A stretch of 64,000 nucleotides of DNA, from assembly GCF_001677475.2 (NCBI RefSeq), contig NZ_CP015229.1. The stretch is one strand, 5' to 3'. Position numbers and translations under genes: made by a program. The notes beneath the pieces are model-generated. The model had not been told where the DNA came from. It made no database searches and was given only the letters and a program-made list of their open reading frames with translations. This document shows, in pieces, positions 2,240 to 16,919 of the stretch. Positions within the stretch are counted from its first letter, which is position 1; each line of letters begins with the position of its first letter. The stretch is from Escherichia coli (lineage in GTDB: Bacteria; Pseudomonadota; Gammaproteobacteria; Enterobacterales; Enterobacteriaceae).

Positions 2240-2737
2240 TCACCGCAGCATCGTCATCAGCTCCATGGGAGAACGATGCTGCTTTATCAGATCACGCATT
2301 ACCCGCATATGCGGTGCGGAGTAAGAATAAAATGCCTGATAGCCCGCACAAAGCACGTTGTCTGGCGTCTCCTCCCGAGCGTGCGGACACAGCCGATGCC
2401 AGTCGCACGCCTGGCAGTCACGGCGCGATTGCGGGTTTTCGCTGCCACACCATTTTTGTAGGGTGGCGTCAAAAAGCTCAATCGAAATACGACTGATATC
2501 TGCCCGCACCCAACACTCAAACAGGGCAATTAAAAATTTCCCCCACAGCTCTGCTGTCACCGAAGCGGCCGTCATATCGCCCCGGTCATCAAATTCAAGA
2601 TGGGGAATGAGCTGTACGGAGCGGATGCCCCGTTGTTTGAAATTGTGATAAAAATCGGCAGGTTGCAGAGCATCCTTGTACTCTACAACCAGTTTATGCC
2701 TGTCCTCTTCAGCATCAATGACCTGACTTCCTGTCAT
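2240..2737 (-). CDS. yidF: Conserved hypothetical protein YidF (165 aa)
   Basis: ORF in the expected position and length after emrD; Cys-rich. Confidence 0.75.
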   Translation of the reverse strand: MTGSQVIDAEEDRHKLVVEYKDALQPADFYHNFKQRGIRSVQLIPHLEFDDRGDMTAASVTAELWGKFLIALFECWVRADISRISIELFDATLQKWCGSENPQSRRDCQACDWHRLCPHAREETPDNVLCAGYQAFYSYSAPHMRVMRDLIKQHRSPMELMTMLR

Positions 2738-3096
2738 GCGACTCTCTCAATAAATACGATAAGTTGATGTATATGCGTTACAGCAAACAGTATTGCGAGA
2801 GATAACACCGCGAGGGAGATCAAAAATTTGTCACGGACTACGTGAAATTGGGAAAAATCGCTATTCGTGACATCCATTAAATTGCGATTACGGGTGTAGT
2901 GCCAGAGGATCAGCGCCACGATGGCGAGGATGCCAATCGAAATCCAGAATAACATGCCCGCCTGGTGCCAGTTGTGTTTGATAGCCAACGCCATCAACGC
3001 GCCGTAGCCCAGCATGGTACGAAACCACGCCAGTGATGTGCGCTCCGGCTGCAGCCCTGGGTCGGCAATGCGTCTGGCTTTGCGGCTATCCGGCAT
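2734..3096 (-). CDS. yidG: Inner membrane protein YidG (120 aa)
   Basis: Hydrophobic 120-aa ORF overlapping yidF by 4 nt. Confidence 0.75.
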   Translation of the reverse strand: MPDSRKARRIADPGLQPERTSLAWFRTMLGYGALMALAIKHNWHQAGMLFWISIGILAIVALILWHYTRNRNLMDVTNSDFSQFHVVRDKFLISLAVLSLAILFAVTHIHQLIVFIERVA

Positions 3097-3433
3097 ACAA
3101 CACCAGTCCCATAACGATCACCGCCACGACCATCAATATTAAGCTGATGATTAATAAGCTGTTGGTATAGGGCAGGTCCTCTTTCAGACGCATCGCTTTT
3201 TCATTGCGTAACCAGCGCAAGTAGCCATACATCGCTAACCCGCCGGAAAACAGACACAACAACAACGCCAGCAGTTCGCGAATGACGGGCGTGGCGAAAT
3301 CTGGCGCAAGTTGGTCAAGCCCAACCCCCGCCGCCAGAAATCCTAGTGCGGTACGGATCCACGCCAGAAAAGTACGCTCATTAGCCAGCGAGAAGCGGTA
3401 ATCGGGCGCTTCTCCGAGGCGGGAAATTTTCAT
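3086..3433 (-). CDS. yidH: Inner membrane protein YidH (DUF202, 115 aa)
   Basis: Hydrophobic 115-aa ORF overlapping yidG; operon-like arrangement yidHGF. Confidence 0.75.
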   Translation of the reverse strand: MKISRLGEAPDYRFSLANERTFLAWIRTALGFLAAGVGLDQLAPDFATPVIRELLALLLCLFSGGLAMYGYLRWLRNEKAMRLKEDLPYTNSLLIISLILMVVAVIVMGLVLYAG

Positions 3434-3603
3434 TGTTGCTCCTTTGCAATTTCACTAACGCTCTATCTTTAGCGGTTTTTTTTAAGAATTTCGTCCGCCC
3501 GTTTCCTGATATGCTTTTGCCATCCGCTGCAAGGAGGTCAGATGGGTATCATAGCGCAAATTGACATCCTCCACGCCCTGAAGGACGAGGATCCCTGCTA
3601 CGT

Positions 3604-4812
3604 TCAGGCTGTCGCCTGAATCATTTCGGTGGGTTCCTGCTTCAACGAGCGGCCTGACTGCACCATCTCTCCACAGGCAAGAACGGCGTGCCCCGCCGCT
3701 AAAATGTTACGAGCGCCATTTACATCGGCGTTCGCTGTATATCCACATACCTGGCATCTGAATTTACTTTGTGACAGGCGATTTTCTTTCGCTGTATGAC
3801 CACAGCACGCGCAACGCTGGCTTGTGTACGCTGGCGGAACAGCAAGCACCTGACCGCCACTCCAGAGCTGCTTGTACTCAAGCTGGCGGCGCATTTCATA
3901 CCAGCCCTGATCCAGTATCGTACGGTTTAAACCTGATTTTGCCCGGACATTGCGCCCCGGCTGGCTGACCGTACCCGCTGCTGACTTTGACATGTTGCTG
4001 ACCTTCAAATCCTCAATGACTATCATTGCGTGGTTTTTACTGACGGTCGTTGTGACTTTGTGAAGGTAGTCCCTGCGGATATTTGCGATACAGGAATGCA
4101 GTCGCTGTATTTTGCGTTTCTGCTTCTGCCAGTTGTTGCTGAATTTGACCTTGCGGCTTAACTGTCGCTGAAGTCTCGCCAGCGTCTTCTGGTTTTTCTG
4201 AAAACTGTTTACAGGCCCAAAGACTGTGCCATCTGACAGCGTGGCGAGTTTAGCCACGCCAGCATCCAGCCCGACCATTGATGCTGAAGGGTGAACCGGA
4301 GTTGATACTTCACTTTCAGTCTGAATACTGATGTACCACTTACCGCAGGACTGGCTGACAGTGACATTTTTCACAACACCCGTGACCTGACGGCTATTCC
4401 GGTAGCGCATCCAGCCAAGTTTCGGCAGAAAAATACGGCTTTTTTCCTGATCGAGCTTAACGCCCTGCGGGTAGCGGAATGCATCATTCTGTCCCCGCTT
4501 TTTGAATCGGGGAAAAGCAGCCCGCTTCTGGAAGAAGTTTTTGTAAGCCCGCTCAAGGTCTTTCAGTGACTGTTGCAATGGCTGTGAGGGCGAATCTTTA
4601 AGCCATTGCATTTCAGTGGCGTTTTTCCACTCAACCAGCCAGGAAGCCATTTTCCCGTAAGGGATGTATTTATTACCGGCCTCATGATTCTCATTCTGAA
4701 GCGCCAGAGCACGATTGAAAACGAAACGACATGCGCCTGCGAAGCGCCTCATTTCACGCTCCTGTTGGCCACCTGGTCTTAACTGGAATTTAAATGCCTG
4801 TAGTCGTTTCAC
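3604..4812 (-). CDS. tnpB: TnpB (OrfB) of an IS200/IS605-family element, RuvC-like with C-terminal zinc finger; putative RNA-guided nuclease
   Basis: 402 aa; N-terminus [17 protein letters not shown] (the KxYKFRLxP-type start), C-terminal CxxC...CxxC (CACCGH...CQVCGY). Confidence 0.85.
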
Positions 4813-4882
4813 AGGCCAAATGATACTTTGGTCTGTGAATAAAGAAACCGATATCCGACGGGGAAGGCATTGTGTTTTCCTG

Positions 4883-5251
4883 ATGCATGTTCACCTGGTC
4901 TTTGTCACCAGATACCGACGTCAGATTTTTGACTATGACGCGACAGAAAAACTACGCACTTACTTTTCAAATGTATGTGCTGATTTTGAAGCTGAACTGG
5001 TTGAAATGGATGGCGAACCAGATCACGTCCATTTGTTAATTAACTATCCTCCCAAACTGGCGATATCCAGTCTGGTAAACAGCCTCAAAGGCGTATCGGG
5101 TAGGTTACTGCGACGAGATCGACCAGATATTGCAGTCAGGTATTACTACAAAGGCGTTTTGTGGAGTCCTGGCTATTTTGCCAGTAGCTGCGGAGGTGCG
5201 CCAATATCCGTCATCCGCCAATACATTGAACAAAAGCAAACACCTGGTTAA
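4883..5251 (+). CDS. tnpA: IS200-like Y1 (HuH) transposase TnpA
   Basis: Contains MHVHLVFVTRYRRQ and HVHLLINYPP (HuH motif) and the C-terminal Tyr region; start uncertain (ORF opens at 4715 but that would overlap tnpB; Met at 4883 chosen). Confidence 0.7.
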   Translation: MHVHLVFVTRYRRQIFDYDATEKLRTYFSNVCADFEAELVEMDGEPDHVHLLINYPPKLAISSLVNSLKGVSGRLLRRDRPDIAVRYYYKGVLWSPGYFASSCGGAPISVIRQYIEQKQTPG

Positions 5252-5381
5252 GTGGAAAACCTCGCCTTATATCCCCGCCCTGAAGGACGGGGTTTTACGG
5301 CGCACCGGATAAATTTGGTTATGCGCCGTCAGCCGTGCTGAAGAATAGGGACCAGCACCCAACGGATGCCAGTCCACACAA

Positions 5382-12778: not shown

Positions 12779-14029
12779 TTAGCGATCAGTTTCGGTGATC
12801 CACAGCTGGCCACCTTCCATCCACGCCAGCCACTGACCATCCGGCGAGAAGACCACGGCGTCCGCAGAAGGTGGATTGGCGTGGTTTTCGGTTAAATACT
12901 CAACCTCGCCGCTTTGCGCATGGGCGCAAGCAATTCGATTATCCAGCACAAAGCCCAACCATTCTCCTGACGGATGCCAGTTAAATGCAGACTGAATATC
13001 CGTTTTGTTATGGGTTAACTGGCGCGGCTCGCCGCCTTGTGCCGAGATAAGCCACAGTTGCACAATGCCGTTATCATCACGCATTAAAAACGCGATTTGC
13101 GTACCCTGCGGATTACAGCGCACCCAGTGGCGCGGGACGTTGACTAACCCCGGATAAGCCCGATGGTGGGTAAAGGTTAAACGTCGCTGCACGACGCCAC
13201 GCGGTGGCGCGGGCAGGGTTGTTTCCGTTCCACTTAACGGCGCATCACCTGCCGCTTTCCAGCCAGCTTCATCTTGCGGTAACTCAACGATAAACAGCTC
13301 CGGCACTTTCTCGCCCTTTGGCGAAAGTGTGTCGCCAATAAACGCCAGCGCGTGATTTCCTACCCATCCTTCTTCATAAGCACGATTGATTTCATCGCTG
13401 CCAGGCTGCGGCGTGGGCGTTGTTTTACTCACCAGCACACACCAGTGGCTACCGCTGTATTCACGCGGATGCTGCTTTTGTACATTGACCGGGCCAAACG
13501 GTGCAGCAACACCGACGTTTCGCAAATCCAGCGCCGGATCGAGTTGATGCATTACATGGTCGTTATAGGTAAAGCTCACCCTTTCACCGTTCGGGTTAAA
13601 GACATGCACATGGCTGCCACCGCGCAGCGCCCCTGGCGTATACGGCGCGGTAATATCCATCGCATCAAGGTTACTCACCTTGCCGCCTTCAACAATCACT
13701 CCGCGCCGATGATGGAAGTCGTAATGCCATGTTTCATCAGGATTTTCCGGGCCGTGAATGAAGACATATTTTTCTGACTTCGGATGAACGGTCACCACGC
13801 CGACGTGTGCGCCCTGTGACGCGCGATAGATAACCTCGACCTCGCCGGTATGGATATTCACACGCTCAATGGTCTCGCCGGTAAACGACGCCCCAGAAGG
13901 ACGCACGTCAAATACCAGCCACTGGCTGTCGGGCGTCCAGGTATTGGTATTGGTGAGCAGGTGATTACGGGGAGCAAAGGTTATCTGTTTCATGGCGCGG
14001 TCCTGATACAAAACGGTTCCCGCCATCAT
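12779..14029 (-). CDS. yidR: Conserved protein YidR (DUF3748, beta-propeller-like)
   Basis: 416-aa ORF in the expected position; exact start uncertain (alternative Met 12 codons in). Confidence 0.75.
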   Translation of the reverse strand: MMAGTVLYQDRAMKQITFAPRNHLLTNTNTWTPDSQWLVFDVRPSGASFTGETIERVNIHTGEVEVIYRASQGAHVGVVTVHPKSEKYVFIHGPENPDETWHYDFHHRRGVIVEGGKVSNLDAMDITAPYTPGALRGGSHVHVFNPNGERVSFTYNDHVMHQLDPALDLRNVGVAAPFGPVNVQKQHPREYSGSHWCVLVSKTTPTPQPGSDEINRAYEEGWVGNHALAFIGDTLSPKGEKVPELFIVELPQDEAGWKAAGDAPLSGTETTLPAPPRGVVQRRLTFTHHRAYPGLVNVPRHWVRCNPQGTQIAFLMRDDNGIVQLWLISAQGGEPRQLTHNKTDIQSAFNWHPSGEWLGFVLDNRIACAHAQSGEVEYLTENHANPPSADAVVFSPDGQWLAWMEGGQLWITETDR

Positions 14030-14093
14030 ACTTCACAAGGACTTCACTTTCAGACAATAGTCTTTTGCCATCGTGATGAATGTGAGTAAAAAG

Positions 14094-15194
14094 ATGGAAC
14101 ATTTCGACGTGGCGATTATTGGCCTCGGCCCGGCGGGGTCGGCGTTGGCGCGGCAGTTAGCAGGCAAAATGCAGGTGATCGCGCTGGATAAAAAGCACCA
14201 GTACGGTACTGAAGGTTTCAGCAAGCCTTGTGGTGGTCTGCTGGCACCGGACGCGCAGCGTTCTTTTATTCGCGATGGACTGACGCTTCCTGTCGATGTA
14301 ATCGCCAATCCGCAGATTTTCAGCGTCAAAACCGTCGACGTCGCCGCATCGCTCACGCGTAACTACCAGCGGAGCTATATCAATATTAATCGCCATGCTT
14401 TCGACTTGTGGATGAAATCGCTGATCCCCGCCAGCGTTGAGGTTTATCACGACAGCCTGTGTCGAAAAATCTGGCGTGAGGATGATAAATGGCATGTCAT
14501 TTTTCGTGCAGACGGCTGGGAGCAACATATTACTGCCCGCTATCTGGTCGGTGCCGATGGCGCAAACTCGATGGTGCGGCGACATCTCTACCCGGATCAT
14601 CAAATCCGTAAATATGTCGCTATCCAGCAGTGGTTCGCAGAGAAACATCCGGTGCCGTTCTACTCCTGCATCTTTGATAATTCGATAACTAACTGTTATT
14701 CATGGAGTATCAGCAAAGACGGTTATTTTATCTTTGGCGGTGCCTATCCAATGAAAGACGGTCAGACGCGTTTCGCGACGCTGAAAGAGAAAATGAGCGC
14801 CTTTCAGTTCCAGTTTGGTAAGGCGGTGAAAAGCGAAAAATGCACGGTGCTGTTTCCCTCACGCTGGCAGGATTTTGTCTGCGGTAAGGACAACGCCTTT
14901 CTGATTGGCGAAGCGGCGGGATTTATCAGCGCCAGCTCGCTGGAAGGGATTAGCTATGCGCTGGATAGCGCAGAGATTCTGCGTGCGGTGTTCCTGAAAC
15001 AGCCGGAGAAGAGCAACGCCGCTTACTGGCGCGCCACCCGCAAACTGCGTTTAAAACTCTTCGGCAAGATAGTAAAAAGCCGATGCCTGACCGCACCGGC
15101 TTTAAGAAAGTGGATTATGCGCAGTGGTGTGGCGCATATTCCACAGTTGAAAGATTATCCAACGCGCTTCACATCGCCCACCAGCAGGATGTAA
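14094..15194 (+). CDS. cbrA: FAD-dependent oxidoreductase CbrA (colicin E2 tolerance protein)
   Basis: N-terminal FAD-binding [24 protein letters not shown]; the 3' end overlaps the convergent dgoT remnant. Confidence 0.8.
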
Positions 15195-15268
15195 GAGAGT
15201 GCGCCAATCAACGCGACGACGGAGATATAAACCAGTGCAGGCGCGAAGCCATAGCCTTGCAACAGATA
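15156..15268 (-). pseudogene. dgoT: 3'-terminal remnant (about 37 codons) of the D-galactonate MFS transporter gene dgoT; the rest of dgoT and dgoDAKR are absent
   Basis: Minus-strand frame reads [45 protein letters not shown], a terminal MFS transmembrane helix with no upstream ORF. Confidence 0.5.
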
Positions 15269-15404
15269 TTAGTCCACAAAAAAACAACTCATAAGAAAAG
15301 GTCTTATATCGGGCAGAAATCTGAAAAGGGAGATCAGGCGCTAAACAGGAGGGAAAGAAGAGTATGCTTTCAACGGCTTAGCGATCTTGTTTAAAGGATT
15401 AATC

Positions 15405-16061
15405 ATGAATTTGAATTTTAAGGGATTTTTTAAGGCTGCCGGTTTATTCCCACTGGCGCTGATGCTTTCGGGCTGTATCTCGTATGCCCTGGTTTCCCAT
15501 ACCGCAAAGGGTACTTCAGGAAAGTATCAATCGCAGTCAGACACCATCACGGGGCTATCGCAGGCAAAGGATAGTAATGGAACAAAAGGCTATGTTTTTG
15601 TAGGGGAATCGCTGGATTACCTTATCACTGATGGTGCCGATGACATCGTTAAGATGCTCAATGATCCAGCACTTAACCGGCACAATATTCAGGTTGCTGA
15701 TGACGCAAGATTTGTTTTAAATGCGGGGAAAAAGAAATTTACCGGCACAATATCGCTTTACTACTACTGGAATAACGAAGAAGAAAAGGCACTGGCAACG
15801 CATTATGATTTTGCCTGTGGTGTTCAACACTGTACCAGGTCACTGGAAAACCTAAAAGGCACAATCCATGAGAAAAATAAAAACATGGATTACTCAAAGG
15901 TGATGGCGTTCTACCATCCATTTAAAGTGCGATTTTATGAATACTATTCACCCAGAGGCATTCCGGATGGTGTTTCCGCAGCATTACTGCCAGTGACTGT
16001 TACGCTGGACATCATTACTGCACCGCTGCAATTTCTGGTTGTATATGCAGTAAACCAATAA
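15405..16061 (+). CDS. yidX: Lipoprotein YidX
   Basis: Starts [27 protein letters not shown] (lipobox LSGC). Confidence 0.8.
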
Positions 16062-16106
16062 TCAGTAAGCGGGCAAACGCGTTTATGCTGTTTGCCCGTC
16101 CACTGA

Positions 16107-16919
16107 TTAATTCAGCACATACTTCTCAATAGCAAACGCCACGCCATCTTCAAGGTTGGATTTGGTGACAAAGTTCGCCACTTCTTTCACCGAAGGAATA
16201 GCGTTATCCATCGCCACACCGACGCCTGCATATTCAATCATTGCGATGTCGTTTTCCTGATCGCCAATCGCCATGATTTCTTCCGGTTTAATACCTAACA
16301 CGTCGGCCAGTGATTTCACACCCGTACCTTTGTTAACGCGTTTATCGAGGATTTCGAGGAAGTACGGCGCACTTTTCAGCACGGTATATTTCTCTTTCAC
16401 TTCCTGCGGAATACGCGCGATCGCCTGGTCGAGGATGGCGGGTTCATCAATCATCATCACTTTCAGGAACTGGGTATTGGGGTCCATTTTCTCCGCTTCG
16501 CAGAATACCAGCGGAATGGTGGCAACGAAGGATTCATGCACCGTGTAGTAGCTGATATCGCGATTTGCTGTATACAGCGTGGTGCGGTCCAGGGCGTGGA
16601 AATGAGAACCGACTTCGCGAGAGAGTTTTTCCAGGAAACGGTAGTCGTCATAGCTGAGAGCGGTTTGCGCCACGGTGCTACCATCAGCGGCCTTCTGTAC
16701 CAGCGCGCCGTTATAAGTAATGCAGTAGTCGCCCGGCTGTTCCATATGCAGCTCTTTCAGGTAATTGTGCACACCTGCATACGGGCGACCCGTCGTTAGC
16801 ACGACATTCACGCCACGGGCGCGAGCTGCGGCAATCGCATTTTTAACAGCGGGTGAAATGGTGTGATCGGGCAGCAGAAGGGTGCCATCCATATCGATAG
16901 CAATGAGTTTGATAGCCAT
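16107..16919 (-). CDS. yidA: HAD-superfamily sugar phosphatase YidA (Cof-type)
   Basis: Starts MAIKLIAIDMDGTLL (HAD motif I DxDGT); 270 aa. Confidence 0.9.
   Translation of the reverse strand: MAIKLIAIDMDGTLLLPDHTISPAVKNAIAAARARGVNVVLTTGRPYAGVHNYLKELHMEQPGDYCITYNGALVQKAADGSTVAQTALSYDDYRFLEKLSREVGSHFHALDRTTLYTANRDISYYTVHESFVATIPLVFCEAEKMDPNTQFLKVMMIDEPAILDQAIARIPQEVKEKYTVLKSAPYFLEILDKRVNKGTGVKSLADVLGIKPEEIMAIGDQENDIAMIEYAGVGVAMDNAIPSVKEVANFVTKSNLEDGVAFAIEKYVLN

Follow-up and report, generated by a model that had tools for sequence, protein, structure and literature searches.

The D-galactonate pathway comprises uptake by DgoT and the activities of the dehydratase DgoD, the kinase DgoK, and the aldolase DgoA. 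In Escherichia coli K-12, the genes for these proteins and dgoR occupy the interval between cbrA and yidX, in the order dgoT-dgoD-dgoA-dgoK-dgoR on the minus strand. In the gut, D-galactonate serves as a nutrient, and loss-of-function mutations in the gene for the repressor DgoR have repeatedly been selected during colonization of the mouse gut by E. coli (PMC7064181). Natural variation in the pathway has been reported to affect growth, and natural isolates that lack the structural dgo genes are known, with the junction not described (PMC12288454). Similarly, array hybridization found dgoTAK to be absent from Shigella flexneri serotype 6; the junction was not described for this case either (PMC3225857). 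In addition, a dgoT pseudogene is annotated in the O157:H7/O55:H7 lineage (ECSP_RS34270 in strain TW14359, NC_013008.1).

Here we report on a 64-kb stretch of E. coli DNA (hereafter the window, i.e., the whole stretch that was analyzed) in which only about 200 bp are found at the position of the dgo genes. We conclude that positions 15155-15404 very probably represent the scar of a single old 4.75-kb deletion that removed dgoRKADT and its promoter, that this deletion is one allele which has been moved among genetic backgrounds by recombination in its flanks, and that the cell should not use D-galactonate.

Materials and Methods

Positions are those of the window unless assigned to the K-12 reference locus, designated L001 (NC_000913.3, positions 3866000-3880500). 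Searches within the species covered 5,426 complete E. coli genomes, and the search with a 70-bp query centred on the junction used an E-value limit set beyond the reach of half-matches. Chimeric queries, in which the deletion-type sequence next to the junction was joined to the K-12 operon interior, were used to search the 5,426 genomes for this sequence in dgo+ alleles. The polarity of the change was assessed by a scan of one genome per bacterial species, anchored on CbrA, which yielded 32 loci. Besides Escherichia, the comparison of the dgoT sequence to the left of the junction included Citrobacter, Pseudocitrobacter, Phytobacter, Kosakonia, Buttiauxella, and Enterobacter spp.

Results

The genes of the window are ordered ibpA, yidQ, yidR, cbrA, dgoT remnant, yidX, yidA, yidB, and gyrB, i.e., the K-12 order minus the dgo genes (Table 1). 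BLASTN against K-12 gave two abutting segments, with positions 14000-15268 aligned to L001 3284-4552 (96.1% identity) and positions 15269-16200 aligned to L001 9303-10234 (97.0% identity). The intervening 4,750 bp of K-12 (L001 4553-9302), which comprise dgoT codons 1-393, dgoD, dgoA, dgoK, dgoR, and 141 bp upstream of dgoR, are absent from the window; homology with K-12 thus reaches 114 nt into the 3' end of dgoT, stops at 15268, and resumes at 15269, 141 bp upstream of dgoR. These alignments bear out the original prediction that dgoRKADT is missing between cbrA and yidX where K-12 carries it. The predicted spacing of about 190 bp between the two genes also agrees with the 192 bp measured from the end of the cbrA open reading frame (15194) to the first possible yidX start (TTG at 15387; 210 bp to the homologous ATG at 15405), and the junction, expected near 15269..15275, was placed by the K-12 alignment at the near edge of this estimate.

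Table 1. Positions of genes and other features around the dgo deletion junction in the window.
Feature	Position	Strand	Description
yidR	12779-14029	minus	
cbrA	14094..15194	+	colicin M resistance FAD-dependent reductase; homologous to K-12 CbrA over 14094-15155
dgoT 3' remnant	15155..15268	minus	114 nt: 37 codons and stop codon; DgoT residues 394-430, last transmembrane helix
Junction-linked divergent patch (~60-80 bp)	15248..15309		about 19 substitutions and one 1-nt indel
Deletion junction	15268..15269		K-12 L001 4552 joined to L001 9303 (K-12 3,870,551 to 3,875,302)
Retained distal part of dgoR-yidX intergenic region	15269..15404	+	aligns with K-12 L001 9303-9438
yidX, K-12-type allele	15405..16061	+	putative lipoprotein; tblastn with YidX, 98.6% over 218/218 residues

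In tblastn, CbrA matches the window at 97% over 354/354 residues. In the window, the K-12 cbrA stop codon TAG is replaced by TAT (15156-15158), which extends the reading frame by 13 codons (39 nt) to 15194, so that it overlaps the dgoT remnant in antisense. This extended cbrA (1,101 bp) is also annotated in the dgo+ strain IPCEC48 as well as in the deletion strains 33F4 and O145, and hence is a standing polymorphism of its own that the deletion did not bring about. The retained intergenic segment presumably holds the yidX promoter; a simple scan of 15269..15404 found no consensus sigma-70 site.

The minus-strand peptide next to cbrA, which had been read as the last 37 codons of dgoT after a stop codon, was identified as such, with 35 of 37 residues identical to the corresponding part of K-12 DgoT (tblastn E=1.4e-14 within the window) and an in-frame TAA at 15269-15271 preceding it. 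It is 92-95% identical to DgoT C-termini across genera, and its position is orthologous; the remnant is convergent with cbrA, with adjoining stop codons, and is collinear with K-12 through cbrA into the dgoT 3' end. A full-length dgoT would have 430 codons for 12 helices, a start codon, and a promoter; in the window only 37 codons are left, the promoter/operator region is deleted, and the remnant, which is without start codon, N-terminus, and promoter, is thus a pseudogene fragment. Searches with DgoD, DgoA, DgoK, and DgoR gave no tblastn match anywhere in the 64-kb window, which accordingly lacks dgoD, dgoA, dgoK, and dgoR as components of a functional dgoRKADT operon. The same 114 nt are annotated by PGAP as a pseudogene ("incomplete; missing N-terminus") in all seven E. 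coli carriers that were fetched (33F4, O157:H7 TW14359, O145 RM8843, XH990, DSM 103246, LR14, and Tig207).

An open reading frame of 35 codons with a TTG start is listed within the remnant (15155-15262), and one could propose that the remnant has been co-opted as a single-helix membrane protein of 35 residues, with the start codon (TTG at 15262) supplied by a deletion-specific change from GCG to TTG that is common to all E. coli deletion haplotypes. We consider such a role very unlikely because the dgo promoter is deleted, neither a promoter-like site nor a convincing Shine-Dalgarno sequence is found upstream of this reading frame, the remnant is annotated as a pseudogene, and its amino-acid replacements vary by carrier (K to T in O157, R to H in 33F4, L to F and A to G in Escherichia sp. 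E1V33, and A to V in the window), a scatter that is expected of unconstrained sequence. Given the carrier-specific replacements and the lost promoter, we treat the 35-codon reading frame as dead.

The two K-12 breakpoints show no direct repeat or microhomology, with at most 1 nt common to both, and a deletion mediated by microhomology or by repeats that span the breakpoints was thus ruled out. With no common sequence at its breakpoints, the event was an illegitimate end-joining or slippage-independent one rather than a recombination between repeats. The right breakpoint is located 2 nt outside a perfect 10-nt inverted repeat (L001 9271-9280 and 9291-9300; TGTAGTACAA/TTGTACTACA), which lies inside the deleted segment and which we presume to be the DgoR operator overlapping the dgo promoter; the presence of this palindrome beside the breakpoint is suggestive of a hairpin-provoked break that may have triggered the deletion. 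With regard to functions created at the junction, no Rfam match was found there at E≤1, and RNA folds were not significant (z -1.6 and +1.1) as well as weaker than that of a virtual K-12 deletion; a known RNA or a selected RNA structure at this site was thus rejected. A new promoter or terminator was also rejected, as the scan of the junction yielded no promoter-like site and only a single terminator-like match at chance level.

Among the 32 loci obtained with the CbrA anchor, the K-12-type order and orientation cbrA-dgoT-dgoD-dgoA-dgoK-dgoR was found in Citrobacter amalonaticus, C. youngae, other Citrobacter spp., Pseudocitrobacter vendiensis, Phytobacter massiliensis, an Enterobacter sp., and Buttiauxella agrestis. 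In these outgroups the operon is followed by yidA wherever the contig reaches that far, and Phytobacter massiliensis keeps a yidX-like gene before yidA. Since outgroup genera carry dgo at the same place and in the same orientation, the operon is ancestral and the arrangement in the window represents a loss; an in-register 37-codon fragment of the dgoT 3' end would be left behind by a deletion only. The reverse polarity, with an empty cbrA-yidX site as the ancestral state, dgoRKADT inserted in the K-12-like majority, and the remnant either fortuitous or part of the insertion target, could draw on the lack of dgo at this site in about 7% of E. coli, in E. albertii, and in other Escherichia representatives, as well as on several Citrobacter, Kosakonia, and Pseudocitrobacter genomes in which cbrA is next to yidA without dgo. 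However, the remnant is the exact dgoT 3' end, at the same position and with the same convergent cbrA overlap as in dgo+ genomes, and encodes a peptide with 92-95% identity to full-length DgoT across genera; had dgo been inserted, 37 codons of one of its genes would not be expected at sites that never received it. In addition, the operon lies at the same place and in the same orientation in no fewer than nine outgroup genomes of five genera, and its flanks are without mobile-element features or direct repeats. An insertion is therefore highly improbable, and the in-register remnant has already refuted it in practice.

A 651-bp query across the site was contiguous in 413 of the 5,426 complete E. 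coli genomes, and the 70-bp query centred on the junction matched over its full length, at one place each, in 405 (~7%). The deleted 4,750-bp segment is present in 5,022 of these genomes and absent from 404; as the number of junction carriers is nearly that of the genomes without any dgo DNA, the carriers keep no dgo genes elsewhere. Most carriers belong to O157:H7/O55:H7; among the others are O145 as well as isolates of poultry, pig, primate, human, and water origin. The occurrence of an identical junction in hundreds of independently finished genomes leaves a negligible probability for an assembly artefact (i.e., a collapsed or misjoined contig), for which no observation speaks.

The window has both the identical junction and the junction-linked substitutions of this widespread 4,750-bp deletion allele (O157:H7 type); as judged from these markers, its allele was shown to be identical by descent to that of the O157:H7/O55:H7 lineage, of O145, and of about a hundred further complete E. 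coli genomes, and the same allele is found in at least one more species of Escherichia. By contrast, the original prediction had implicitly framed the deletion as a recent event private to the strain or lineage of the window. In agreement with such an event, positions 1-25000 have a best identity of only 98.4% over 25 kb among the 5,426 complete genomes, and the remnant carries private substitutions (e.g., A to V at GTC); a private origin is nevertheless hardly credible, as the junction nucleotide and about 19 linked substitutions are common to 405 complete E. coli genomes and Escherichia sp. E1V33. The top overall matches of the 25-kb segment are dgo+ strains, and, at this level of identity, the lineage of the window has no close representative among these complete E. 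coli genomes; with ~97.9% identity to K-12, the window belongs to E. coli in the broad sense. The scar is hence a real but ordinary polymorphism that is already known and annotated, since the same 114-nt pseudogene is part of the public PGAP annotation of hundreds of genomes and thus is not new. Our literature search found no paper describing this junction and no report on dgoT, O157, and galactonate.

A divergent patch is linked to the junction (Table 1). Its changes are common to the window and seven E. coli carriers, extend from the junction over ~20 nt on the left side and ~45 nt on the right side, and are absent from all four dgo+ reference alleles. When evaluated in 40-nt windows, deletion and dgo+ alleles differ by 22-23% over 15249-15327, with under 1% divergence within the deletion class; in the cbrA flank, divergence is 1-6% between deletion and dgo+ alleles and similar (about 0-8%) within the deletion class. 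Both of two deeply diverged yidX allele classes occur together with the junction, one in O145 and the other in the other carriers. The carriers thus have diverse flanks, with 2-8% divergence in cbrA within the deletion class and as much divergence within as between classes, and both yidX classes are represented; these features show that the flanks have recombined freely around a single, old junction.

The patch could not be traced to a dgo+ allele. Among about 5,000 dgo+ E. coli genomes, the chimeric queries did not detect it on either side, with best full-length identities of 94.6% (left) and 94.0% (right). The last nine codons of the remnant differ from K-12 at 8 of 27 nt; six of these differences are third-position synonymous transitions, and the other two constitute the change from GCG to TTG. 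This third-position excess, which comprises eight changes (binomial p of about 0.02), suggests that the changes accrued in a functional dgoT. Among the dgoT 3' ends from the CbrA-anchored scan, none matches the left patch at better than 20/27 nt, and differences from the patch at ≥7/27 nt were found in E. whittamii and E. albertii dgoT as well as in 14 dgoT genes of other genera; the Escherichia dgoT genes are K-12-like in this nine-codon stretch. The right half of the patch is intergenic and variable among dgo+ alleles too, and shares some states with IPCEC48 and E. albertii. Because the patch matches neither the E. coli dgoT alleles nor the roughly 20 further dgoT sequences that were compared, the sequence at the junction is not accounted for by the mere deletion of an operon of K-12 type. 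Two metagenome scans for the patch, one of which included the continuation into an intact dgoT, gave zero matches; as the deletion 20-mer is likewise absent from the collection, there was no positive control, and this negative outcome is uninformative.

Related scars were found in two other members of the genus. Over the neighbourhood, identity between Escherichia sp. E1V33 and the window is only about 92%, yet E1V33 has the same junction and an almost identical patch; divergence reaches about 5% in the flanks but only 0-2% in 15229-15347. A 37-codon remnant is also present in the E. albertii type strain, in which homology with K-12 on the left ends 4 nt earlier than in the E. coli scar; 24 poorly alignable nt are followed by clear homology, and the overall spacing is within 1-2 nt of that in E. 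coli (compare the junction sequences ...GCGCCACAAATTCAT... and ...GCAACAGATATTAGT...). Based on this resemblance, the E. albertii scar possibly reflects the same event as the E. coli scar. The adjacent yidX gene (15448-16083) is itself hypervariable, with two allele classes that are 25-33% apart in nucleotides within dgo+ E. coli; compared with K-12, YidX is only 61% identical in E. albertii and E69 and 77% identical in E. whittamii, and the neighbouring yidA product is 99-100% identical. This variability suggests that yidX, which encodes a putative lipoprotein, may consist of old alleles or be under diversifying selection.

One explanation for the patch, which we regard as a genuine possibility that falls short of an even chance, is that a divergent lineage was the place of origin of the deletion, or the source of imported DNA on which it arose, and that homologous recombination brought it into E. 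coli, with its foreign flanks later eroded by recombination to the ~60-80 bp that are still linked to the junction; in a variant of this explanation, the deletion and dgo+ alleles both date from before the split of the Escherichia species and have persisted since. The confinement of the high divergence to 15249-15327 is consistent with such an origin, as are the synonymous changes expected of a functional dgoT, the presence of this junction and its patch in E1V33, a species with about 8% divergence, the end of the E. albertii remnant within 4 nt of that of the window, and the distance between the neighbouring yidX allele classes. However, neither the other taxa nor the dgo+ E. coli genomes yielded a donor, the E. 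albertii remnant is K-12-like in the left patch, the third-position excess includes eight changes only, and E. fergusonii, E. marmotae, E. ruysiae, and Salmonella, which the CbrA-anchored scan did not recover, fall outside the sampling. Most economically, the deletion would date from long ago or would have happened on a haplotype with deep divergence, and subsequent recombination would have cut the divergent flanks back to the shortest stretch that is still linked to the junction. We consider it rather unlikely, and propose only tentatively, that the patch records an ancient presence/absence polymorphism of dgo that has persisted or been repeatedly exchanged across Escherichia (E. coli, E1V33, and possibly E. 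albertii), with its age preserved in the ~22% divergence island beside the hypervariable yidX. If true, an ancient polymorphism would suggest that D-galactonate use has been under balancing selection over the long term or under selection that depends on the niche, or else that the allele came in by introgression from a lineage outside the sampling.

Other parts of the window also vary. Directly after emrD, where K-12 carries yidF to yidL, positions 2240-5300 hold only a truncated fragment of an anaerobic sulfatase maturase gene (yidF-like, 2240-2737) and an IS200/IS605-family TnpB gene (3604-4812); from its gene content, this region looks like a second deletion or replacement. A Shigella origin of the window was considered in view of its best E. 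coli identity of only 98.4%; apart from this one TnpB gene, no transposase was found among the open reading frames that were checked. Large open reading frames without NCBIfam match (728, 704, and 839 aa, plus two of about 200 aa) are located at 28307-30493, 40021-42135, 42717-43900, and 44369-46888, i.e., in the mnmE-tnaA and yieH-phoU intervals, where K-12 carries cbrBC, yieKL, and the bgl operon. PADLOC gave only weak matches for them (HamA/DUF1837, E=1e-4; AbiEii, E=3e-4), and one small open reading frame has a weak pentapeptide-repeat match; these regions may represent variable islands or defence genes.

Discussion

In the course of events that we consider very probable, one old 4.75-kb deletion eliminated dgoRKADT, the operon for D-galactonate catabolism, from the cbrA-yidX interval together with its DgoR-controlled promoter, and the last 37 codons of dgoT survive as a dead fragment. 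Two points without shared sequence were joined, one of them 2 nt from the presumed DgoR operator palindrome, and the deletion allele has moved among backgrounds by homologous recombination in its flanks. A genome with this scar only is without transporter, dehydratase, kinase, and aldolase, and is hence predicted to be unable to catabolise D-galactonate and to grow on it; no second dgo copy is present within the 64-kb window. The scar thus represents a small, predictable metabolic difference and a convenient lineage marker. Its wider interest is evolutionary only, as one deletion allele has apparently been kept and passed among Escherichia lineages for a long time, beside several independent losses; what deserves attention is the age of this allele, its distribution across species, and the sharp divergence island at the junction.

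Loss of dgo has taken other forms as well. E. coli O141:H4 P13-6 shows an IS91-associated loss, E. coli E69 has a dgo junction without remnant, and E. whittamii carries an internal dgoA-dgoK deletion; these losses differ in breakpoint and mechanism, none has the junction 15268|15269, and such differing losses indicate that loss of the dgo operon is recurrent in the genus. Outside Escherichia, cbrA is next to yidX or yidA without dgo in several Citrobacter, Pseudocitrobacter, Kosakonia, Buttiauxella, and Intestinirhabdus genomes, and cbrA has the operon on its opposite side in some genomes, among them those of Phytobacter and one Kosakonia sp. (S29).

Compared with the dgoRKADT operon of K-12, the window has the same chromosomal site, with flanks that are 96-97% identical, and is without all five genes and the promoter/operator, so that the site can have kept no function of the operon. 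By contrast, the dgoT pseudogene of the O157:H7/O55:H7 lineage has the same 114-nt remnant, junction nucleotide, linked substitutions, and flanking genes as the window. Between the window and O157:H7 TW14359, the 70 nt around the junction contain 3 differences, and the 320 nt of 15099-15418 contain 12 (96.25% identity, one gap); these two alleles are further distinguished by the private Ala to Val replacement in the remnant of the window and by cbrA, which is of K-12 length in O157 and 39 nt longer in the window.
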